In this document: piece after piece, positions 19,597-36,431 of the stretch | Position numbering within the stretch: the stretch's first letter is position 1 | Layout: each line of letters opens with the position of its first letter | Source of the DNA: a phage | Assembly (NCBI GenBank): GCA_036253495.1 | Contig: GCA_036253495.1_4125.1 | Strand: one strand, 5' to 3' | Length of the DNA: 64,000 bases | Translations under genes and position numbers: made by a program | Notes under the pieces: generated by a model | Told to the model about the DNA's origin: nothing | Databases searched by the model: none | What the model saw: the letters and a program-made list of their open reading frames with translations, nothing else

Positions 19597-19788
19597 ATGT
19601 TGATTTATCAATGTGATAACATTCGTGTTATACAGCATCCCTACTTACAAATCTTTGATGTGCAGCAGTATATGGAAGGTGATGACCCAAGAACCTATGG
19701 TCGTAAGTATGATTACTTCACTGTAAAGCAGTGTCGTAACATCAAAGAAGTACGACAATTAGTTCAAGAACTTCAAAATAAAGGTTGA
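19597..19788 (+). CDS. hypothetical small protein
   Basis: ATG 19597 after GAGGA; track ORF from 19567. Confidence 0.5.
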   Translation: MLIYQCDNIRVIQHPYLQIFDVQQYMEGDDPRTYGRKYDYFTVKQCRNIKEVRQLVQELQNKG

Positions 19789-19814
19789 CTTCGGTCAGCC
19801 TTTTTTGTTATAAT
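19783..19814 (+). terminator. terminator hairpin overlapping promoter -35
   Basis: GGTTGAC-TTCG-GTCAGCC, T-run, TATAAT. Confidence 0.7.
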
Positions 19815-24072: not shown

Positions 24073-24104
24073 GGTTGACTTCGGTCAGCCTTTTTTGCTA
24101 TAAT
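24073..24104 (+). terminator. terminator hairpin overlapping promoter -35
   Basis: GGTTGAC-TTCG-GTCAGCC, T-run, TATAAT. Confidence 0.7.
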
Positions 24105-26935: not shown

Positions 26936-26968
26936 ATGGGTTGACTTCGTTCAGCCCTTTTTGCTATA
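26936..26968 (+). terminator. terminator hairpin overlapping promoter -35
   Basis: GGGTTGACTTCGTTCAGCCC, T-run, TATAAT. Confidence 0.65.
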
Positions 26969-26998
26969 ATTATTTCATCAAGACGAGAGGATGAATAC

Positions 26999-27436
26999 AT
27001 GACCCGCATTAACTTAGTACACGTTAAAGAACTTGCTGACCAACATCTGATGGCTGAATATCGTGAACTTCCACGTGTATTTGGTGCTGTACAAAAACAT
27101 GTTCAAGCACGTAAGCGTGTACGTGATTTCAAAATTAACAGTACTTATCTGTTAGGTTCAGGTCATGTAACATTCTTCTACGACAAGTTACTATACTTAC
27201 AGAAGCGTCATATTGATATTGTTAACGAATGTTTGCGTCGTGGTATGAAGATTCAAAACACTGAAGTAAACGACATTAGCGGCTTCCCTGCTGAGTTTTG
27301 TAATGACTACGTACCATCGGAGTCCGAGATTAAAACATCACGCGAGCGTTTGATTGAGAAGCTTCAGATGAAGCCTAAGTGGTATAAGTTTACTGATGTT
27401 GAGCTACCTATATATTATGTTGATATGATACAATGA
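26999..27436 (+). CDS. denV: pyrimidine dimer DNA glycosylase (T4 endonuclease V homolog)
   Basis: N-terminus [30 protein letters not shown]...KRVRDFKI and HVTFFYDKL closely match T4 EndoV as recalled from memory. Confidence 0.88.
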
Positions 27437-27666: not shown

Positions 27667-27699
27667 GGGTTGACTTCGGTCAGCCCTTTTTGCTATAAT
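27667..27699 (+). terminator. terminator hairpin overlapping promoter -35
   Basis: GGTTGAC-TTCG-GTCAGCC, T-run, TATAAT. Confidence 0.7.
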
Positions 27700-27725: not shown

Positions 27726-27965
27726 ATGAAACTATCTTTTATACGTTTAGCAGAATTCTTCGGTACTGATATAATTACTTTACAACAAATTGCAGACAAT
27801 ACTTCATTAAGCACACAAGAAGTACTTGACTTAGATGTGATAGAGTGTGATAATACTTCTATCGATTATAAAGAAGGTCTTGTCGAAAAAGATAAGATTC
27901 AGGCTAAGATTAATGGTGCTGGACGGGTTCAGTACTGGAAAGGGGTTTTAAGTAATGCGTGTTGA
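27726..27965 (+). CDS. hypothetical small protein
   Basis: 79 aa ORF. Confidence 0.5.
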   Translation: MKLSFIRLAEFFGTDIITLQQIADNTSLSTQEVLDLDVIECDNTSIDYKEGLVEKDKIQAKINGAGRVQYWKGVLSNAC

Positions 27966-29289
27966 TATTAAAGTACCTTTTAAATGTGAACCACTGAAAT
28001 TTGTCCAAGATTATGAAATATCTAAAACTATCGAATTTAGTGAAACCGCTTCAAAACTTGATATTAGTAGGAAAATTTTAGGTGAAAAGTATCCAGATGT
28101 AATATGGGATGATTTCAATCCATATAATATGGAAAAAGATGAAATGTGTAAAGACGAAATTATTGGCTTTGTTCGTATGGGAGTTCAAAATCTAAAATAT
28201 TATGCATATATATGTCAAAAATGCTCGACAAATTCAAAACAAAATGGTTTAGGTATATTTTTTACATTAAAAAGATATATTAAAAATAAAATTACATGTA
28301 TGTGCTCAAAAACACCACTATATACAAATTATCAACGAACTATACAACTTCATAATAAATCTATAAGTTTAGGTTATGTGTTTATTGGATATAATAAAGA
28401 AAAACAAATAACTTCGGATGCTAAAATAAAACTAGGATGTTATAATCATGGTATGTGGGATACTATAACAATAAATTCGTATAACACCAACTCACGCGGC
28501 TGTTCAAAATGTGCTGGTGTTCATTCACCATCACAGGAAGAAGCAAATGAAAAAATAAAACAAATTTGTAATGAAAATAAATTAGTATTTCAACCTTTCC
28601 TATATAAAAATAATAAAACTAAAATTTTTGTAAGATGTTTGGTATGTAATGAATCATGGGAGTCAAACTATTTTAAACTTTATACCATGAAATATGGTTG
28701 CCAACGTTGTGTAGGAACAAAAAAGTTAACTACTGAGATTTCTACAGGAATTGTATCAGATTATTGTACAAAATATAAGTTGACTTTCATTCCATTTGTG
28801 TATGATAATAATAAGATGAAAATATCTCTACGTTGTGATATTTGTTCACATGAATGGATAACACCATTCAATGGTATTACTAATAGAATGGGGTGTCCAA
28901 GATGTAATCCAACTGAAGCAATACGTATTTCTAAAGATTTAGATCCATTAATAGATGATTTTCAGCCGGAAAAGAAATTCCTTGAACTTGGAAAGATGCG
29001 ATTTGATAGATTCAGTCAACGATTAAACATTCTGTTTGAATATGATGGGGAACAACACTTTATTTCCAATAGGGTTTGGCATTCTACTACATCTAAGTTT
29101 GAATCTTCTCGTGAACGTGACAGTATAAAAACAGAATACGCAATAAAAAATGGATATAACTTCATTCGTATTGCGTATTATGAAGACCATATTGGAGCAT
29201 TGAAATCTTTCCTTAAACTCATTGAAGAGAATCCAGGAAAGCAAATCGTACAGATCTATGGTGATGTTCAAATCTTAGACAAGAAATAA
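27955..29289 (+). CDS. zinc-ribbon-repeat protein with C-terminal nuclease-like domain
   Basis: Repeated C..C pairs (CQKCS, CSKCAG, CLVCNE..GCQRC, CDICSH..GCPRC); C-terminal FEYDGEQHF..R..D..K..G..IRI motif. Confidence 0.5.
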   Translation: MRVDIKVPFKCEPLKFVQDYEISKTIEFSETASKLDISRKILGEKYPDVIWDDFNPYNMEKDEMCKDEIIGFVRMGVQNLKYYAYICQKCSTNSKQNGLGIFFTLKRYIKNKITCMCSKTPLYTNYQRTIQLHNKSISLGYVFIGYNKEKQITSDAKIKLGCYNHGMWDTITINSYNTNSRGCSKCAGVHSPSQEEANEKIKQICNENKLVFQPFLYKNNKTKIFVRCLVCNESWESNYFKLYTMKYGCQRCVGTKKLTTEISTGIVSDYCTKYKLTFIPFVYDNNKMKISLRCDICSHEWITPFNGITNRMGCPRCNPTEAIRISKDLDPLIDDFQPEKKFLELGKMRFDRFSQRLNILFEYDGEQHFISNRVWHSTTSKFESSRERDSIKTEYAIKNGYNFIRIAYYEDHIGALKSFLKLIEENPGKQIVQIYGDVQILDKK

Positions 29290-29299
29290 CAATACAAAA

Positions 29300-29332
29300 G
29301 GGTTGACTTCGGTCAGCCCTTTTTGCTATAAT
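29300..29332 (+). terminator. terminator hairpin overlapping promoter -35
   Basis: GGTTGAC-TTCG-GTCAGCC, T-run, TATAAT. Confidence 0.7.
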
Positions 29333-29360: not shown

Positions 29361-30131
29361 ATGACCAGAGAAGCACGCAGCATTCAAATTCAGAAAAACT
29401 TCAACTCCATGATGGTTGCTCTTGAGTGTTTGCTCGATGATAGCAGTACTGTAAAAAGTATGGTTGTCAGCGGTGCTCCTGGTGTTGGTAAGACTTACAC
29501 CCTCTCTAAACGCCTCCAGAAAGCACATGACGCGGCAGAATGGAACGTAGCTACCATCAGTGGTAAAATGACCACTCTGGCTCTGTACGAAGTTCTGTAC
29601 AAGAATCGTCATAGCACCAACGTGTTAGTACTGGATGATATGGACAGCATCTTTGATTCAGAAGACGGTATGAACCTGCTCAAAGCAGTACTGGATAGTG
29701 GCAAGCGTACTGTTTCTTATATGACTAGCTCGAAGTATCTGAGCAGCAACGGTATCCCTAACAGCTTTGATTTTAATGGTCGCATCGTATTCATTACTAA
29801 CAAAGATTTAGCACTGAATGCTAAAGCTAAAACTAAAATGTCTGCTCACTATGCTGCTCTTATGTCTCGCTCTGTATACGTTGACTTACAGATCCAGACC
29901 AAAAGCGATATCATGATTCACATTGAGAACGTGATGAACCAGACCAACATTCTGGAATCTAAGGGTATTAACAGTAATGGTAGTAAAGCAATCCTGAACT
30001 GGATGTTGAAGCACGAAGATTCACTTCGTTCACCTTCACTGCGTATGCCACTGTTGATTTCGGCAGTATATAACAACAACCCATACGATTGGGAAGAGCA
30101 ATGTGAAAACTTGTTCCTGGAGAAAAATTAA
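29361..30131 (+). CDS. P-loop NTPase (AAA-like ATPase)
   Basis: Walker A GAPGVGKT and Walker B-like VLVLDDMD; codon composition looks GC-richer than its neighbours. Confidence 0.75.
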   Translation: MTREARSIQIQKNFNSMMVALECLLDDSSTVKSMVVSGAPGVGKTYTLSKRLQKAHDAAEWNVATISGKMTTLALYEVLYKNRHSTNVLVLDDMDSIFDSEDGMNLLKAVLDSGKRTVSYMTSSKYLSSNGIPNSFDFNGRIVFITNKDLALNAKAKTKMSAHYAALMSRSVYVDLQIQTKSDIMIHIENVMNQTNILESKGINSNGSKAILNWMLKHEDSLRSPSLRMPLLISAVYNNNPYDWEEQCENLFLEKN

Positions 30132-30350
30132 TTGATAACATATAACATCGATAAGGTCATGTTATTATATGCATGTATTAACATGATTGTCGTTTTAGTT
30201 AAAGTTTATAGATGGTTTCATACACTTGATATTGATACTGAAAAGGAGTATAATCCTCAAGAAGCACCACTGGGTTTAAAAGTTATTGTTTTAATTACTG
30301 TAGTGTCTGTATACATGGTATTACTATCAACTATGATTAAGTTCACTTAA
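30132..30350 (+). CDS. small membrane protein (tandem array 1/8)
   Basis: 72 aa hydrophobic. Confidence 0.5.
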   Translation: MITYNIDKVMLLYACINMIVVLVKVYRWFHTLDIDTEKEYNPQEAPLGLKVIVLITVVSVYMVLLSTMIKFT

Positions 30351-30360
30351 CGAGGAACAT

Positions 30361-30693
30361 ATGATTAATTTATTTTCAACTGAGGTTATGATTAAAATTA
30401 CATTAGTATACATGTGTCTATTCGTATACTACCACGCTCTCATCGGAATCTTGTGGTTCTTTAAGAAAGGTCGTCTTCTTGAGAAATTGTACCCAGACTA
30501 TATGATATTGTATACAATTGTCCAGGGTGTAGGAATAGTACTGGGAATTCTAGTGCACTTGATATATTTGTTTGAACCACACCTTCCGTGTATTACACAA
30601 TACATTGTATTCGGAACTACTATTATGTGGCTTGTAATGATGGGTGTGTATGGTCTGTATTTGTACAGGAAACGTATAGTGGGAGATTTCTAA
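30361..30693 (+). CDS. small membrane protein (tandem array 2/8)
   Basis: 110 aa; LWFFKKGRL motif. Confidence 0.55.
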   Translation: MINLFSTEVMIKITLVYMCLFVYYHALIGILWFFKKGRLLEKLYPDYMILYTIVQGVGIVLGILVHLIYLFEPHLPCITQYIVFGTTIMWLVMMGVYGLYLYRKRIVGDF

Positions 30694-31046
30694 TGCAAGA
30701 GATTATAAAATGGTTGACAACCAGTGATATTGCTAGTACACTGAACTATGTACTCATTATCTTATATCCGTTTTTGATGGTTCTAAACTTCATTGGATGG
30801 TATTTCAAACGTCCAATTTACTACAAGATTAATAATTCAGAGTACTATGAAAGTGTTGTAATTGCAACCTCAATCACGTATACTATGGGTGCAGTTCTTA
30901 CAGTCATAGGATTAGGTCAAGGTGATAATCTTAACTTTATGCTATGTACCTTTGTTATGATATGTATTCCAACACTAATTGTAATTCTATCGAATATTGT
31001 GTGGAAAAAAATGTTATTTGCACGCAACAAAATACCGGAGGCATAA
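30693..31046 (+). CDS. small membrane protein (tandem array 3/8)
   Basis: TAATG overlap at 30693; GWYFKRPIYY motif. Confidence 0.55.
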   Translation: MQEIIKWLTTSDIASTLNYVLIILYPFLMVLNFIGWYFKRPIYYKINNSEYYESVVIATSITYTMGAVLTVIGLGQGDNLNFMLCTFVMICIPTLIVILSNIVWKKMLFARNKIPEA

Positions 31047-31381
31047 TGGAGTACTTTATCAGTTTACTACCGTGGTACTTGAAAGTAAGTACAATTTACT
31101 ACATCATTTCCGCTGGGTTTTATTTCTTGATGTGGTTCTTTAAACGTCCAATCAGTGAATTCATCGATAATAATCTGTTGGATGTTAAACTTCACTGCTG
31201 GTTTTGGACATCGACTGTGATGCCATTCATCCATTACGGAATTATCAGTACTGGTAACCGTTCTAATGGTGAAATCATTTCCTTTGGTTTTTACTGGATA
31301 TCGACTATTGTTTACATTGGTGTGCTTTTGTATCCATTTGTAGTTAAACTACGAAACTCTATCCCAGATCACAGGAAATAA
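31046..31381 (+). CDS. small membrane protein (tandem array 4/8)
   Basis: TAATG overlap at 31046; MWFFKRPISE motif. Confidence 0.55.
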   Translation: MEYFISLLPWYLKVSTIYYIISAGFYFLMWFFKRPISEFIDNNLLDVKLHCWFWTSTVMPFIHYGIISTGNRSNGEIISFGFYWISTIVYIGVLLYPFVVKLRNSIPDHRK

Positions 31382-31382
31382 T

Positions 31383-31703
31383 ATGAAGATTGAATTGATT
31401 CTTTTCACAGTAAGTGCATTCTACTTTTGGGTTTGCTGGATTGGTTTTCTCTTTGCACTAAAACCATTTGACTTCTATGCAAAGCAGTGTAAAAATGCTG
31501 CTGTTGGTAATGTAGCTTTTACATTGCTTAGTACATTATGGGTAGTACTGCTTATATTCAATCCACCTGATAATGATTTGGAAATGTCATTGTGTACATT
31601 ATTTGCAGTCCTGTGTGTATTCGCAGCATTCTGTAGTTATATTGGAAAGTTATGTTCTTTGGTATCAAATTTCCATCGTAAACAAAAAGATAAGAGGGTA
31701 TAA
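31383..31703 (+). CDS. small membrane protein (tandem array 5/8)
   Basis: 106 aa hydrophobic. Confidence 0.55.
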   Translation: MKIELILFTVSAFYFWVCWIGFLFALKPFDFYAKQCKNAAVGNVAFTLLSTLWVVLLIFNPPDNDLEMSLCTLFAVLCVFAAFCSYIGKLCSLVSNFHRKQKDKRV

Positions 31704-32086
31704 TGTACACAACAATATATGTTATTCTTAATATCCTAATTGCATTTCTAACAATAGGTGCATTACTATACATTGGAAAGTTCTTTTGTGTAAAGTTCGT
31801 CGAAGATGTGTATGATGATATTGAATCCGACTACGAATCTAAGTGCTTCTTCCATGTTGGATATATCATTTGCTTAGTAACCACTATCCTCACATGGATT
31901 GTATACGTATTCGGGATTGGAATCACTTCAATTGGTGAACCAGTACTGTGCATTATTGGATTAGTGTTTTCTTCAATGTTCGGGTTATTGTTCATGATTA
32001 TTCTTATGTATAATTTAATCTGTACTGCTATTGTTCCTTTCTTTTATGAAATTCACAATAACATTAAACGTAAAAAACGAGGTTAA
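31703..32086 (+). CDS. small membrane protein (tandem array 6/8)
   Basis: 127 aa hydrophobic. Confidence 0.55.
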   Translation: MYTTIYVILNILIAFLTIGALLYIGKFFCVKFVEDVYDDIESDYESKCFFHVGYIICLVTTILTWIVYVFGIGITSIGEPVLCIIGLVFSSMFGLLFMIILMYNLICTAIVPFFYEIHNNIKRKKRG

Positions 32087-32088
32087 TT

Positions 32089-32442
32089 ATGTTTTCTCCT
32101 GCTGGGCAAGTTATATTCATGTTATGTACACTGGTATTCTTTATGTTCTCTGTACTACTTGTGATGAAATTCTTTCACATGAAACCATTCAGTACTTGGT
32201 ATGATAATATTGTGTACTATATTGGTAATGCTATAACACTCTTTTCAGTTGCATACTATTTCGGTTATTTTGCAATGCTATTTGGGTTATTACTTGAGGC
32301 TCGTGCATTGCTTGTAGCTGGTATGATGGCAGATTTAATGTGTATAACACTAGCCTGTATTGGATTTACTGTATGTATGTCGTTAACCATTTTTGACAAA
32401 TTATGTAAACTACACAAACGTTTAGGTGAGAGGATGAAATAA
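32089..32442 (+). CDS. small membrane protein (tandem array 7/8)
   Basis: 117 aa hydrophobic. Confidence 0.55.
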   Translation: MFSPAGQVIFMLCTLVFFMFSVLLVMKFFHMKPFSTWYDNIVYYIGNAITLFSVAYYFGYFAMLFGLLLEARALLVAGMMADLMCITLACIGFTVCMSLTIFDKLCKLHKRLGERMK

Positions 32443-32825
32443 TGACTTACCGTGATTACTTTTGTATTTTTGAAATTGCAGTATTCGCTTTAGGTTCAGT
32501 CTGGTTACTTCTATACTACTTCTGTATTAATCCAGTATTCAATTGGGTTCGTCGTGCTGAACAAAGTAGTGCTGGACAAATAGCAGTTGTTATGGGTATG
32601 ACATATTATATGTTCGCCGTAGCTTCTGTTGTTATTGAAGTAATATTTGGTGGCATGAATGGTGATGATGGGGCAACGTTCTATGGATTCGTTACATTCT
32701 TTAGTGTGCTGATTCCGTGTGGTGCTCTTATTATTACTGCGTTCTATTGGCTATATCGTGGTGTTAAGAAGCTGGAATCAATTCACGTAGATATGCGTTC
32801 AAAACGAATGGGGATTGACAAATAA
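32442..32825 (+). CDS. small membrane protein (tandem array 8/8)
   Basis: 127 aa hydrophobic, ATGA overlap. Confidence 0.55.
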   Translation: MTYRDYFCIFEIAVFALGSVWLLLYYFCINPVFNWVRRAEQSSAGQIAVVMGMTYYMFAVASVVIEVIFGGMNGDDGATFYGFVTFFSVLIPCGALIITAFYWLYRGVKKLESIHVDMRSKRMGIDK

Positions 32826-33376
32826 TGAAACGAAGTTCTAATGTCATTCGTGAACGATTTCGTAAAGTAAAAACTATTAAGTACGGAGCGATTGCCTTGG
32901 CACTTAGTAGTACTTTTATTATGACTGGATGTGAACGCTCTGAAGATATTTCTGTATATCAGAATGTGGACCAATGTAAAAGAAGTGGTAGCAATCCGGT
33001 ACAATGTGAAGATGATTATAAAAAAGCACTAACTGAATCGGAAAAGGTAGCACCAAAATATAGTTCACAAAGTGATTGCTCTAGTGATTTTGGTAATCAG
33101 TGTCAACAGCATAGCTCTGGATTCTTTTGGATGCCAATTATGAGTGGATTCCATAGTAGTGGTAATGGGTTTGCTAGTCAACCATTATACAACTCTAAAG
33201 GGAACTTCTATGATGCTGGTGGTAACTCCTACGGTAGCAGTACTGCAAAAGGTACAACACGTACTGTATCAAGTTCCGCATTAGCTCCAAAACCTCCTAC
33301 AACGACCACAATCACCCGCAATGGGTTTGGGTCTTCAGTAGCCAGAAGTGCCGCTCACACGAGTTCTGGTGGATAA
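32825..33376 (+). CDS. putative lipoprotein, S/G-rich
   Basis: Signal peptide with IMTGC lipobox-like site. Confidence 0.6.
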   Translation: MKRSSNVIRERFRKVKTIKYGAIALALSSTFIMTGCERSEDISVYQNVDQCKRSGSNPVQCEDDYKKALTESEKVAPKYSSQSDCSSDFGNQCQQHSSGFFWMPIMSGFHSSGNGFASQPLYNSKGNFYDAGGNSYGSSTAKGTTRTVSSSALAPKPPTTTTITRNGFGSSVARSAAHTSSGG

Positions 33377-33407
33377 TAAAAAAAGCCCACTTAATGTGGG
33401 CTTTTTG
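33377..33407. terminator. bidirectional Rho-independent terminator
   Basis: AGCCCACTTAATGTGGGCT hairpin flanked by A-run and T-run between convergent genes. Confidence 0.7.
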
Positions 33408-36400
33408 TTATTTGTGTTTTATGTGTAAAGTGTCTAATATTGTATTGAACAATGATTTAGCAGAAATCATGATTACTTGATCAAAATCTTTAGTATAAGA
33501 AATATTAGCAGTACTGGAAGAATCTTTCACCTCATCCGGTAATGCATCAAACTCTTCTTTTTCCATAATCTTTTCAAGTTCTTCACGAGAAATGGCTTTT
33601 ACGTTTTCAATAGTCCTTAGTTGTATATTATAATCTTTATAATACGAAACTAAGTTCGTTGCGTATGAACCATCTTTAGATGCTGTGCCAGTAAAATCAT
33701 AACATCCTGTATCAGTACTAACCCAATCGATTTTCCCTGAACTACCACTATATACACCTTTGTTAAATTTAATATTAACAACATCGCCAATAGTTTTCAA
33801 TATACCACCTTTACATTCATTAAATGCGTTTAATTGATAACTTGTAGTCATATAGAATTTCGGTTCTAATGTAACAGTATCACCTACAGTTGCTTTCATA
33901 TCAGAAACACTTAAGAACAATTCATTAAATCCTTTTGAATAAGTCTTGGTAATTGTTGTCCCATCCCTGTTAGTTACTGTGTATTCTAAGTCCAATTCAC
34001 AAATACTATTCAATGATAAGTAAGGGATATCAAATTTATCAGTACTAGCATCATAAGGACATCTTGAGGATGGTAGTATACCAGTAGGGTTTGGTACGTA
34101 TTGAACTTTTGTTAACTCATACCCGCTTGCATTCGCTGGTGTAACTGTAATAGACGGTGTAGATATTCCTTTCATTCCACAGAAGTATATGTTATCTGGA
34201 AAATCATTTATTACGAAGTCAGTGACAGGAATATCATAAGTATCTTTATCAGTCCAATTAAGAACAACATTAGAACTGGTTGGATCAACAATATGTTCAC
34301 TAGAACCACAGAAATATACTGATTTGGTATTAGTAATCATTAGTAATGTTTTGGATGATGAGTTCAATTCAAGAACATCTTTCACTTCAAGACCAGATGG
34401 TAATGTCAATGGTAACTTCGTGAATGATGTTAAATCTTGTTCATCTTTAACACCACTAGTCCCCGCCGGAAACTTACCTGAACCATAGAAAACACCTTTA
34501 TTCGTCATGAAATACATGAACGGGGTTGATGTTCCTTTGTCAAATAGTTTAATGTCATCACATGTTAAACCATCAGGTAAACTTACTTTAGATGGAGTTC
34601 TATAAACACCAGGCTTAATACCACCTTCACCATTACTTACATCACCTAGTACATATAAATCTTTACCTAGTTTTAAGAACATTGATTTATTTTTAGCACA
34701 CAAGAATGTATCATATGATTTATCATCAATTGGTAGCTTGGTATACTCGGTGTATGTATGTATTGAATCATCAATCCACGAACTATCACCACTAATGTAA
34801 ATGTGATTGTTTCTGTCAATATAATATGAATACACATCAGTACTGTTCATATATAAAGCATTTAGTGCATTTGTTTTCACTAAGTGATTGAACTTAAGAA
34901 CTTGTTTTCCATCGTACTTATGGGAGTTGACACCAATATCACCATTCAGGCTACTACCAAATGAATATATGTGACCACGTGGTAATAGAACTTGAACACC
35001 ACTTTTGGTTAAATTATATTTGGAGTGCAAGAGATCGTTATATACAACTCTAACTTTCTTAAAGATATCAGTACATTCAATCCACGATTTAGATGGTGTA
35101 CCATCCATTCCTATTATTGCTGGATCACCATAATAATAAGCTTTATTTTCATATGATATTTTAAAAGATGATTTACCATCTTTTGTATTAGCACTGAAAT
35201 ACACATCTTTACTATCTTTAATTGGATAAGTACTATTCTCTACAAAAGTATTATATGAGATATCGTTGTTAGCACTATTAAGAACAAAAGAAGTAGATGT
35301 ACTATTGGACTTATAGACTGCTACGGAAGATGTATCACTGAAATCAATTTTAGTGAACGTATCTTTGTATGTTTCGTTTAATAATCCTACATAAAAAACA
35401 TCAGTGCCATCAGTAACGAATATAGCATTTCTATTATTACATAAAGAAGTAATATTTTTTACTACTTTATTTGAATTATAGTTCGGTAACTTCTTTAATC
35501 CACGAACAAAATTATCACAAATAATACCAGTACCATAGAAGTTATAATCTTTATCACAGTATATAAATGCTGTATCATATGGTGAAGTACTTAAATTCTT
35601 ATAGAATGGGAATGGAGTGAATGTGAATTGTAGAACATTACGCAATTCCCCTACTGTCTCTGTTGGGAATTGTCTGTTTTTATTATTTCCAAGAAAAACA
35701 ACTCTATCTGTTAGGTATGTGTACATAATTCCATATGGTTTTACGTACAAGTCATTATATCCTAATGATAATTTAGTTGGTGATGTTAGTGGACCGGAAT
35801 TTATTTTATTTTGGTTAAAAGAAAATTCATTTGAATTATAACCAGCCCCATATGTATTACCATCAGTACTTAAATAATATACAGTAGCTTCCCCTGCTCC
35901 AAGAAAAGTCTTTACATCAGTTGCTAACGTTTTTTTGAAAGTTGGATAAAATTTATTATATGTTCCCGTTCCCATCATCAGTTCACCATTGCGGTTATGA
36001 CCACGAGCATATAGAATACCTTTGTCTGTATCTAAGAAGAACATTCCATTATATGTTTTGTAAATCTTACCTTTTGTAATATCGAAATTGGAAAAATCAT
36101 CACTAATATCAATGAATATTGTCTCAAGGTTATCTTCAAGGGAGTTTAGAGATTTACCACAATACCATACTGAGTTATCTTTTTTAACAGCAACACAACC
36201 ACACGGACTGGCATCAAAATATGTTACATCGGAAAGAACCAGTGATAAGTTCTTTGTACTGCAATAGTTATCCATTGCATATAAATCGGAATCTTTAAGT
36301 ATATATACGGAATTCCCAACCGCTTTAATCGAATTTATCATGTTTATATCCTCATAAATTGATACCAATTCTAATGTATTTACCCACTTAAAGTACAAAA

Positions 36401-36431
36401 AATGATCAATTAAATGGGGAATCTTTAACAA
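33408..36431 (-). CDS. large RCC1-like repeat protein (putative adhesin; N-terminus uncertain)
   Basis: 1007 aa; GHNRNGELMMGTG and GSSLNGDIGVNS repeat signatures; last gene of the minus-strand cassette. Confidence 0.65.
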   Translation of the reverse strand: MLKIPHLIDHFLYFKWVNTLELVSIYEDINMINSIKAVGNSVYILKDSDLYAMDNYCSTKNLSLVLSDVTYFDASPCGCVAVKKDNSVWYCGKSLNSLEDNLETIFIDISDDFSNFDITKGKIYKTYNGMFFLDTDKGILYARGHNRNGELMMGTGTYNKFYPTFKKTLATDVKTFLGAGEATVYYLSTDGNTYGAGYNSNEFSFNQNKINSGPLTSPTKLSLGYNDLYVKPYGIMYTYLTDRVVFLGNNKNRQFPTETVGELRNVLQFTFTPFPFYKNLSTSPYDTAFIYCDKDYNFYGTGIICDNFVRGLKKLPNYNSNKVVKNITSLCNNRNAIFVTDGTDVFYVGLLNETYKDTFTKIDFSDTSSVAVYKSNSTSTSFVLNSANNDISYNTFVENSTYPIKDSKDVYFSANTKDGKSSFKISYENKAYYYGDPAIIGMDGTPSKSWIECTDIFKKVRVVYNDLLHSKYNLTKSGVQVLLPRGHIYSFGSSLNGDIGVNSHKYDGKQVLKFNHLVKTNALNALYMNSTDVYSYYIDRNNHIYISGDSSWIDDSIHTYTEYTKLPIDDKSYDTFLCAKNKSMFLKLGKDLYVLGDVSNGEGGIKPGVYRTPSKVSLPDGLTCDDIKLFDKGTSTPFMYFMTNKGVFYGSGKFPAGTSGVKDEQDLTSFTKLPLTLPSGLEVKDVLELNSSSKTLLMITNTKSVYFCGSSEHIVDPTSSNVVLNWTDKDTYDIPVTDFVINDFPDNIYFCGMKGISTPSITVTPANASGYELTKVQYVPNPTGILPSSRCPYDASTDKFDIPYLSLNSICELDLEYTVTNRDGTTITKTYSKGFNELFLSVSDMKATVGDTVTLEPKFYMTTSYQLNAFNECKGGILKTIGDVVNIKFNKGVYSGSSGKIDWVSTDTGCYDFTGTASKDGSYATNLVSYYKDYNIQLRTIENVKAISREELEKIMEKEEFDALPDEVKDSSSTANISYTKDFDQVIMISAKSLFNTILDTLHIKHK

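Follow-up and report, generated by a model that had tools for sequence, protein, structure and literature searches.

A tightly packed gene block in a Rak2-like jumbo coliphage: a NrdC.10-like ATPase, a family of predicted three-helix membrane proteins and a YgiB-like lipoprotein

A gene block in which an ATPase gene is followed by eight small putative membrane open reading frames (ORFs, here m1 to m8) and a lipoprotein gene was noticed in a 64,000-nucleotide (nt) stretch of phage DNA (contig GCA_036253495.1_4125.1 of GenBank assembly GCA_036253495.1), which is called the window below. The block combines three kinds of genes with different histories: a conserved ATPase, a clade-specific multigene family and a captured YgiB homolog. 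Several described systems resemble parts of it. T4 Imm and Sp, T5 Llp and phi80 Cor are early phage membrane proteins or lipoproteins that exclude superinfecting phage. The proteins of the block would share with them small size, early expression, location in the envelope, accessory character, variability between relatives and the pairing of inner-membrane proteins with a lipoprotein, but no sequence or fold similarity connects the two groups, and there are 7-10 paralogs here vs single genes in the described systems. Class I holins such as lambda S105 are comparable to the members of the array in length (about 105-130 amino acids, aa), in having three transmembrane helices with N-out/C-in topology and in their charged C-terminal tail; unlike holin genes, the array has an early-type promoter, no adjoining endolysin or spanin genes, no family match and many paralogs. 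The bacterial yjfL (DUF350)-yjfM (DUF1190) pair also consists of a small multi-helix gene directly upstream of a DUF1190 lipoprotein gene, but the three-helix family is not DUF350 and the window lipoprotein is of the YgiB type, not of the YjfM type.

The ATPase has a homolog in T4 NrdC.10, a 36.7-kDa AAA+ protein encoded by an early-region gene behind an early promoter (PMC1524935), to which it is ~40% identical over 81% of its length, with the Walker A/B, sensor and arginine residues in common. It differs from NrdC.10 in size (256 aa vs 322-385 aa) and in that an array stands behind the ATPase gene only in Rak2-like phages. Between the lipoprotein and YgiB of Escherichia coli and Salmonella there is 42% full-length identity, which includes the lipobox cysteine, four invariant cysteines, an RFRK segment and a C-terminal TRGGFG...GG. 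In contrast to host YgiB, the window protein is phage-encoded and, judged from the promoter motif, expressed early; it is shorter, without the Q/A-rich insert, it has no adjoining YgiC-type ligase and it scores below the equivalog cutoff. The biochemical function of host YgiB is not known (PMC11762307). It belongs to the Cpx regulon, and cells need it for fitness when under envelope-related stress; if it is lost, growth is impaired in pH stress and in oxidative stress (bioRxiv 10.1101/2022.08.05.503015). Comparative genomics describes DUF1190 as a metal-chelating lipoprotein of PspA-linked operons (PMC11237479). Finally, in T4-type phages a composite 'promoter-early stem-loop' (PeSL) bounds shuffled gene modules (PMC2839356, PMC4122927). 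The same composite motif bounds the unit described here, and, as in the hyperplastic PeSL cassettes of T4-type phages (Arbiol 2010; Comeau 2014), close relatives have exchanged what stands behind a conserved gene; the differences are that the phage is a Rak2-like jumbo phage and that the left swap boundary is the ATPase stop codon, not a PeSL.

Layout and transcription signals of the block

Along its whole length, the 4 kb segment of the window carrying the block has 98.5% identity to Escherichia phage A4, recorded as an Asteriusvirus of 355 kb and a Rak2-like jumbo myovirus, and the window is Asteriusvirus jumbo coliphage DNA. In 26 other records of jumbo coliphages and Salmonella phages the match was limited to the first 773 nt, i.e. 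the ATPase, with 89-97% identity. All ten ORFs noted in the sequence-only reading of this stretch were found in place on the + strand (Table 1), each preceded by a Shine-Dalgarno-like motif, and the same ten are annotated in A4, all as hypothetical except m1. The unit is tightly packed between 29301 and 33406, and consists of a promoter/terminator cassette, the ATPase, the eight small membrane ORFs, the lipoprotein and a bidirectional terminator. Coupling of the genes by TAATG and ATGA overlaps had been proposed. One-base TAATG overlaps are present at five junctions (m2/m3, m3/m4, m5/m6, m7/m8 and m8/lipoprotein), no ATGA overlap was found among the block junctions, and the junctions without TAATG have gaps of 0-10 nt. 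Opposite-strand ORFs within the block are short and nested. The region contains no tRNA, no Rfam family and, with the exception of a motif repeat in m3/m4, no meaningful repeats. The same architecture occurs in at least five genus-level lineages, a recurrence far beyond chance.

The ATPase ATG is preceded, at a distance of 29 nt, by the 32-nt element GGTTGACTTCGGTCAGCCCTTTTTGCTATAAT, in which a stem-loop and T-run are combined with the -35 hexamer TTGACT and, at 18-nt spacing, the extended -10 sequence TGCTATAAT. Near-identical copies of this element (at most 2 mismatches) are present five times in the window vs 0 expected, all of them on the + strand and each preceding a gene block; there is no copy within the array. 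It has the composition by which a PeSL is defined, a stem-loop and T-run overlapping sigma70 -35/-10 boxes and repeated between modules. This suggests that the PeSL-mediated module shuffling of T4-type phages operates in Rak2-like jumbo phages too. The terminator at the other end starts 4 nt after the lipoprotein stop codon and separates the block from convergent RCC1-like propeller genes, in agreement with the earlier description of a compact envelope-targeted block convergent with the propeller genes. Since a PeSL-like cassette lies upstream, none occurs inside the array and a terminator follows downstream, the ten genes would, by these motifs only, form one early transcription unit; and because there is one promoter cassette, one terminator and TAATG coupling, the membrane ORFs are very probably co-expressed. 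A weaker sigma70-like match within m1 could be an internal promoter, although matches of this kind are common in this AT-rich DNA (52 vs 38 expected). PA5oct, a related jumbo phage, relies on the RNA polymerase of its host (PMC7318152). PeSL-like cassettes were also seen at module boundaries of 121Q, BF17, A4 and RaK2.

Conserved ATPase, divergent array and YgiB-type lipoprotein

The ATPase matched phrog_1250 (E=1.1e-103, profile positions 77-326 of 327), and tblastn detected homologs in 1310 phage records, among them T2, T6, RB phages and T4-like phages of Acinetobacter, Aeromonas and Vibrio, with ~40% identity to the T2, T6 and RB5 proteins. By sequence it is assigned to the T4 NrdC.10 family; Pfam and NCBIfam returned generic AAA+ matches only. 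It represents a short form of the protein, the homologs in T2, VH7D and Pseudomonas 30-2 having 322-384 aa, and the N-terminal extension of ~75 aa found in the T-even proteins is absent, as is also seen from the start of the profile match. Residues G38/G41/G43/K44, D92/D93, N147, R170 and R228 were invariant in 44 homologs. The AlphaFold2 model (predicted local distance difference test, pLDDT, 93) has a canonical AAA+ core and lid, and its best Foldseek matches in the PDB were ORC/Cdc6, RuvB, RFC/Rad24, Bcs1 and MuB (template modelling score about 0.5; E~1e-6 for ORC/Cdc6, RuvB, RFC and Bcs1); the modelled fold has no specific placement beyond generic AAA+. Comparison of the sequence with solved structures gave nothing below E=0.16. 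In searches with the PADLOC defence models the ATPase had only P-loop-level matches (E about 1e-3) and the other block proteins had none except a weak sub-threshold match of m6 (C3a194, E=0.007), and membership of the block in a defence system was not supported. The profile searches proposed earlier for the ATPase had led to a widespread phage family and to no defence family. In several database records the homologs of NrdC.10 carry the names 'thioredoxin', 'clamp loader' or 'FleQ'.

With a GC content of 0.422 and a GC content at third codon positions (GC3) of 0.471, the ATPase gene is, as had been noted, GC-richer than its neighbours (means for 82 ORFs: 0.363 and 0.304), and only 2/82 ORFs have a higher GC3. 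Its interpretation as a recent acquisition was not upheld. The orthologs in 121Q and BF17 are likewise GC-rich (0.40-0.41 vs a locus GC of 0.34), therefore the bias is a property of the gene lineage and not a sign of recent entry. The gene occupies the same position in all Rak2-like phages, 0/771 nt differ from A4, and the protein is 99% identical to that of 121Q; it is the array that forms the divergent part, and the ATPase is the conserved anchor of the locus. No membrane array follows the NrdC.10 gene in T2, VH7D, Pseudomonas phage 30-2, SonariX or two metagenomic contigs with short-form homologs. The proposed unity of the module is weakened by the criterion for refutation given with that proposal, since the ATPase belongs to the NrdC.10 family, which has no array outside the Rak2-like clade; ATPase and array are so far linked by position alone, and in this clade alone.

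Hydropathy profiles indicate three hydrophobic helices in each of m2-m8, helix 2 of m4 being weakly hydrophobic, and two in m1. The proteins m2-m8 are built alike. Their N-terminus is short and either acidic or neutral; helix 1 comes next, then an aromatic-F-x-K motif and polar loop, the hairpin of helices 2 and 3 and finally a basic tail, which often ends in H/R-N-x...KRGK. The W(F/Y)FK(R/K) motif reported earlier to follow helix 1 in three proteins is indeed present in m2, m3 and m4, the others having a degenerate aromatic-F-x-K form. Lysine and arginine residues, counted in 47 members, are concentrated in loop 1 (127) and in the C-terminal tail (236), with 18 in the N-terminus and 28 in loop 2; because of this distribution, and following the positive-inside rule, the predicted topology is N-out/C-in, with loop 1 and the tail in the cytoplasm. 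In the AlphaFold2 model of m8 (pLDDT 74.5) helix 1 is followed by a short amphipathic helix, helix 2, and helix 3 running into a long C-terminal helix. Structurally, this model was matched best by the m7-type protein of 121Q, and a fold search of the viral library retrieved only its own paralogs.

The eight small ORFs had been taken for paralogs, which holds for m2-m8 and not for m1. Forty-six of 60 small proteins from eight phages joined one cluster (BLASTP, E<1e-3, with composition correction). When orthologous groups were compared profile to profile, 24 of 45 pairs exceeded the best of 90 reversed-sequence controls, and every group from m2 to m8 had at least one link above control. The hhalign probabilities were 94% for m3-m4 (108 columns), 88% for m6-m8 (113 columns), 80% for m3-m5 (94 columns) and 97%, near full length, for groups A and B of Mimasvirus. 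PHROG cross-matches agree with this, and the residual DNA repeat in m3/m4, offset by one gene length, encodes W(Y/F)FKRP. These sequence comparisons show m2-m8 to be true paralogs. As a truncated member of the family m1 was rejected, its hhalign scores being no better than the reversed control. It was found only in this phage and A4, the two versions differing by 6 synonymous and 5 nonsynonymous changes (ratio of nonsynonymous to synonymous substitution rates, dN/dS, 0.21). The A4 ortholog (locus L001, 8772-8990) is labelled 'endonuclease V' in GenBank, which is an annotation error.

No Pfam family was reached by any of the 47 three-helix members. A kinship with DUF350/YjfL, suggested by a weak Pfam match of m8 and by the bacterial yjfL-yjfM pair, was considered and rejected: m8 is the only one of the 47 to match DUF350 (17.8 vs 26 bits, sub-threshold), and the family profile aligned with E. 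coli YjfL at 0.8% probability. An exhaustive HMMER search of 1.84 billion representative proteins, for which an alignment of 17 family sequences was the query, yielded 24 matches, all of 106-132 aa and nearly full-length. Among the ten weakest, the named ones were all from Rak2-like phages or from E. coli-labelled records clustering with a phage protein; a word-indexed search gave ten matches, the named ones Rak2-like. Neither search produced a member from outside the Rak2-like phages, and on this basis the family appears restricted to that clade.

The order NrdC.10-type ATPase, 5-9 three-helix genes, DUF1190 lipoprotein and convergent propeller genes was found in RaK2 (Alcyoneusvirus), GAP32, CBB and XbC2 (Mimasvirus) and fHe-Yen9-04 (Eneladusvirus). 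The array is also present in 121Q and BF17, and on a metagenomic contig (L018) denV and an ATPase of 41% identity are followed by ten family members. Copy number in the relatives varies from 5 to 10, with lineage-specific duplicates in 121Q (gp224/225), RaK2 (ORF309/310) and Mimasvirus group A, and in RaK2 and XbC2 unrelated ORFs lie between ATPase and array. Split copies were observed for the m5 ortholog of 121Q (gp228/229; L002, 9198-9513) and for CBB_540/541 (L008, 3365-3717), apparently frameshifts or sequencing errors in otherwise intact arrays. Arrays of the Mimasvirus/Eneladusvirus type also encode a conserved soluble protein of ~255 aa (phrog_27654, no Pfam; GAP32 L005, 3416-4180) and, before the lipoprotein, a single-helix protein of ~92 aa with a long acidic tail (GAP32 L005, 5669-5947; L018, 5342-5602), both of which are absent from the window.

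The positional orthologs of m2-m8 in 121Q and BF17 are 25-67% identical, beside an ATPase that is 96-99% identical. The best conserved paralog is m4 (67% to 121Q gp227) and the most divergent one m7 (25-30%). In comparison with 121Q, the ATPase has a synonymous divergence (dS) of 0.33 and a dN/dS of 0.02, and the array genes have saturated dS (1.5 to above 3) with dN/dS of 0.1-0.55, values which indicate that they are under purifying selection. Nucleotide homology to 121Q ends exactly at the ATPase stop codon, and among 36 related records the array allele of the window is common only to A4. Moreover, m5, m6 and m8 are equally distant from 121Q and from RaK2, a phage of another genus, with the ATPases being 99% vs 70% identical. 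Taking into account the saturated dS, the end of homology at the ATPase stop and the distances of m5, m6 and m8, the array and lipoprotein, together with the propeller region beyond, are best described from these alignments as an old divergent cassette joined to the conserved ATPase. Between the window and A4 there are 61 differences in the 3245 nt following the ATPase (30132-33376). In m4-m6, 20 nonsynonymous vs 3 synonymous changes (dN/dS >1) are suggestive but too few for a claim of positive selection.

The lipoprotein is S/G-rich, as had been noted, and has a lipobox-type cysteine (IMTGC, Cys36); it matched Pfam PF06693 (DUF1190) with 111.9 bits (cutoff 22, E=4.9e-32) and NCBIfam PRK11653 with 156.2 bits, below the equivalog cutoff of 223. 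Lipid modification at Cys36 is predicted. The YgiB of the 42% comparison is that of Salmonella, encoded in a tolC-ygiB-ygiC operon; identity to E. coli YjfM is 26%, and the protein is classified by sequence as a YgiB-type DUF1190 protein. Cysteines 36, 51, 61, 85 and 93 are invariant in the phage and Salmonella sequences, and the N-terminal RFRK segment and the C-terminal TRGGFG...GG are invariant in phage and host. No YgiC/YjfC ATP-grasp peptide-spermidine ligase adjoins the gene, whose neighbour is a convergent RCC1-like propeller, and no ATP-grasp or GSP-synthetase match was found among the ten operon proteins. DUF1190 homologs occur in 144 phage records, in many of them without an array (Agricanvirus, T4-like Moonvirus, SA002), and in 121Q-type Asteriusviruses an unrelated protein of 216-219 aa replaces the lipoprotein. 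The whole pre-lipobox segment MKR...RFRK (window 32825-32885) is invariant between phage and host DUF1190. Signal-peptide n-regions are normally lost by cleavage and are not usually so constant, which hints at a function of its own for this segment.

Possible functions of the block

By analogy with conflict genes, the block is tentatively read as an early accessory block acting on the envelope, in superinfection exclusion or host takeover, to which we assign a probability of roughly 40 per cent. An exclusion-type role is suggested because the turnover of the genes, their allelic replacement and their position beside variable propeller genes resemble those of conflict genes. The proteins would be made early by host RNA polymerase, and the small ones would be inserted into the inner membrane, where each paralog may have its own target among the components of the host envelope; the YgiB mimic would work as a periplasmic or an outer-membrane-anchored protein. 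As a result the infected cell might have its envelope conditioned or sealed while the long infection cycle of the jumbo phage runs. Of specific roles, superinfection exclusion or a block of membrane-associated host functions would be the most likely. In this reading the block is neither a lysis cassette nor a recognisable transporter.

Several observations weigh against an exclusion or takeover role. The assignment is made by analogy only, and early timing is read from a promoter motif. No similarity to superinfection-exclusion families (Imm, Sp, SieB, Cor/Llp) was found in Pfam or PHROG, the single SieB match among the 47 members (E=0.055) being noise. The idea that the periplasmic parts are the most variable was rejected: in ortholog comparisons conservation was 44-48% in the N-terminal half, with 44% for the periplasmic N-terminus, and 30-38% in the helix 2/helix 3 hairpin. 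As the hairpin is more variable than the periplasmic N-terminus, there is no support from this side for outward-facing specificity or contact with incoming phage. Some paralog types have one-to-one orthologs in Asteriusvirus and Alcyoneusvirus that stand in the same order, and the genes show translational coupling; both features suit subunits of a single complex at least as well as effectors that act independently. Furthermore, the position of the array after the ATPase persists in every Rak2-like lineage examined, even at 41% ATPase identity, and could reflect a functional link.

If the exclusion or host-membrane disabling role is true, the block would be a new, unusually large effector set, and it would matter for the design of phage cocktails, in which co-infecting phages could be excluded. 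Rak2-like jumbo phages (121Q, PBECO4, RaK2/K64-1, GAP32, CBB) are phage-therapy candidates with >80% of their genes without known function. The block is a conserved, clade-defining feature of these phages, in which a membrane multigene family expands, contracts and is swapped as a cassette, and it offers an experimental handle on the widespread T4 NrdC.10 and on host YgiB, captured by about 140 sequenced phages. The ATPase and the lipoprotein are new members of known uncharacterised families, and the three-helix family has no Pfam entry. The literature searched contained no account of the array other than its annotation as 'putative membrane protein', and no transcriptome of a Rak2-like phage.

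The alternative that the block buffers inner-membrane and periplasmic stress and keeps the cell energised in a long infection, without excluding other phages, is considered unlikely for the block as a whole. It agrees with the Cpx regulation and stress phenotypes of host YgiB and with the PspA-linked membrane-stress operons containing DUF1190 genes (see above), and the uptake of DUF1190 by many unrelated large enterobacterial phages, often without the array, suggests a general benefit; for the lipoprotein itself a stress-buffering role is plausible. However, a housekeeping role of this kind would not lead one to expect how extremely the three-helix family has diverged, nor its allelic replacement and its turnover of copies; this family has no detectable kinship to YjfL/DUF350 or Psp components, and 121Q-type phages do without the lipoprotein.

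A further possibility is a single machine, either envelope-spanning or a hetero-oligomer of the inner membrane, built from the ATPase, all seven three-helix proteins and the lipoprotein, with the ATPase docking on the basic C-terminal tails and powering transport, membrane remodelling or membrane anchoring of phage DNA. Besides the order of ATPase and array, which is constant even where the ATPases are 41-48% identical, it can draw on the single promoter and terminator, on translational coupling, on the retention of paralog types m2, m3, m4, m5, m6 and m8 between Asteriusvirus and Alcyoneusvirus, and on the tail motif (H/R-N...KRGK) common to most paralogs, which could be a docking site. We nevertheless regard it as improbable. 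NrdC.10-family ATPases are present in about 1300 phage genomes without an adjoining membrane array, the fold of the ATPase matches generic AAA+ proteins, leaning to DNA-handling enzymes (ORC/Cdc6, RuvB, RFC, MuB), and the variation in copy number from 5 to 10, the recent duplicates and the frameshifted copies would be unusual for subunits of fixed stoichiometry. The unrelated ORFs between ATPase and array in RaK2 and XbC2 point in the same direction, as does the lipoprotein, which 121Q-type phages can do without and other phages have on its own. The more specific proposal, that the ATPase, a three-helix hetero-oligomer and the lipoprotein form a new ATP-driven inner-membrane or envelope-spanning machine specific to Rak2-like phages, is distinctly improbable; with the basic tails as docking sites of its ATPase, such a machine might tether phage DNA or proteins to the membrane, translocate them there, or have a part in membrane remodelling.

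A role in lysis, one of those listed in the sequence-only reading, is highly improbable. It would make the array a holin/antiholin/pinholin set controlling lysis jointly with a spanin-like lipoprotein. The description of class I holins fits proteins of 106-127 aa with three helices, N-out/C-in topology and a highly charged C-terminus, and the CBB genome paper mentions no holin for this phage group (PMC5259590). Against this, the promoter cassette is of the early sigma70 type, none of the 47 members matched a Pfam holin family at E<0.1 or a PHROG lysis family, and the only holin in the fold search with m8 appeared at E=1.5. A signal-anchor-release (SAR)-type endolysin (CBB_187, 121Q gp532) is encoded far away (PMC5259590), there is no endolysin in the operon, and the lipoprotein, homologous to YgiB over its full length, is no o-spanin and has no i-spanin partner. 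A set of seven to ten paralogous holins would be without precedent.

That the small ORFs are decaying or non-functional filler of a hyperplastic region is barely credible and for m2-m8 essentially refuted, for although all are annotated as hypothetical, 121Q gp228/229 and CBB_540/541 are frameshifted and m1 is lineage-specific with a TTG start, the ORFs are all intact with Shine-Dalgarno motifs, dN/dS is 0.1-0.55 despite saturated dS, and at least five genus-level lineages have kept the topology and the motifs.

Feature coordinates and neighbouring genes

Table 1. Coordinates in the window of the features of the block and its surroundings
Feature	Position	Strand	Remarks
PeSL-like cassette	29301-29332	+	stem-loop + T-run terminator overlapping sigma70-type early promoter
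AAA+ ATPase, T4 NrdC.10 family (by sequence), short form	29361-30131	+	256 aa; Walker A GAPGVGKT, Walker B VLVLDD
m1, putative two-helix membrane ORF	30132-30350	+	72 aa; TTG start; outside paralog family
Sigma70-like match inside m1	30226-30254		11/12
m2, three-helix family	30361-30693	+	110 aa; WFFKKGR motif; phrog_19454
m3, three-helix family	30693-31046	+	117 aa; WYFKRP motif
m4, three-helix family	31046-31381	+	111 aa; WFFKRP motif; phrog_27396
m5, three-helix family	31383-31703	+	106 aa
m6, three-helix family	31703-32086	+	127 aa
m7, three-helix family	32089-32442	+	117 aa
m8, three-helix family	32442-32825	+	127 aa; phrog_27618
YgiB-type DUF1190 lipoprotein (predicted)	32825-33376	+	183 aa; lipobox Cys36, four invariant Cys, C-terminal TRxGFG...GG
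Bidirectional intrinsic terminator	33380-33406	.	11-bp stem, T-runs on both strands
PeSL-like cassettes, all copies	19783-19814, 24073-24104, 26939-26970, 27668-27699, 29301-29332	+	at most 2 mismatches
T4 endonuclease V (denV) homolog	26999-27436	+	pyrimidine-dimer glycosylase
444-aa ORF, probable homing endonuclease	27955-29289	+	GC 0.28
RCC1-like propeller ORF	33408-36431	-	1007 aa; convergent with operon

Upstream of the block, the 444-aa ORF contains CapR/treble-clef zinc-finger repeats and has endonuclease/HNH matches in PHROG, features by which it is classified as a free-standing homing endonuclease, located between two PeSL cassettes. Its region could not be aligned to A4, which has a 565-aa ORF instead, though both flanks are 98-99% identical. 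The denV gene, which lies farther upstream in the window, lies shortly before the ATPase gene on L018, the distant metagenomic contig, as well. On the other side of the block, the propeller region is strongly divergent from 121Q and BF17. The A4 counterpart of the propeller ORF (98% identical DNA) is divided into two ORFs of 668 and 314 aa, a fusion or frameshift difference, and the CBB relatives of the propeller genes are annotated as virion structural proteins.

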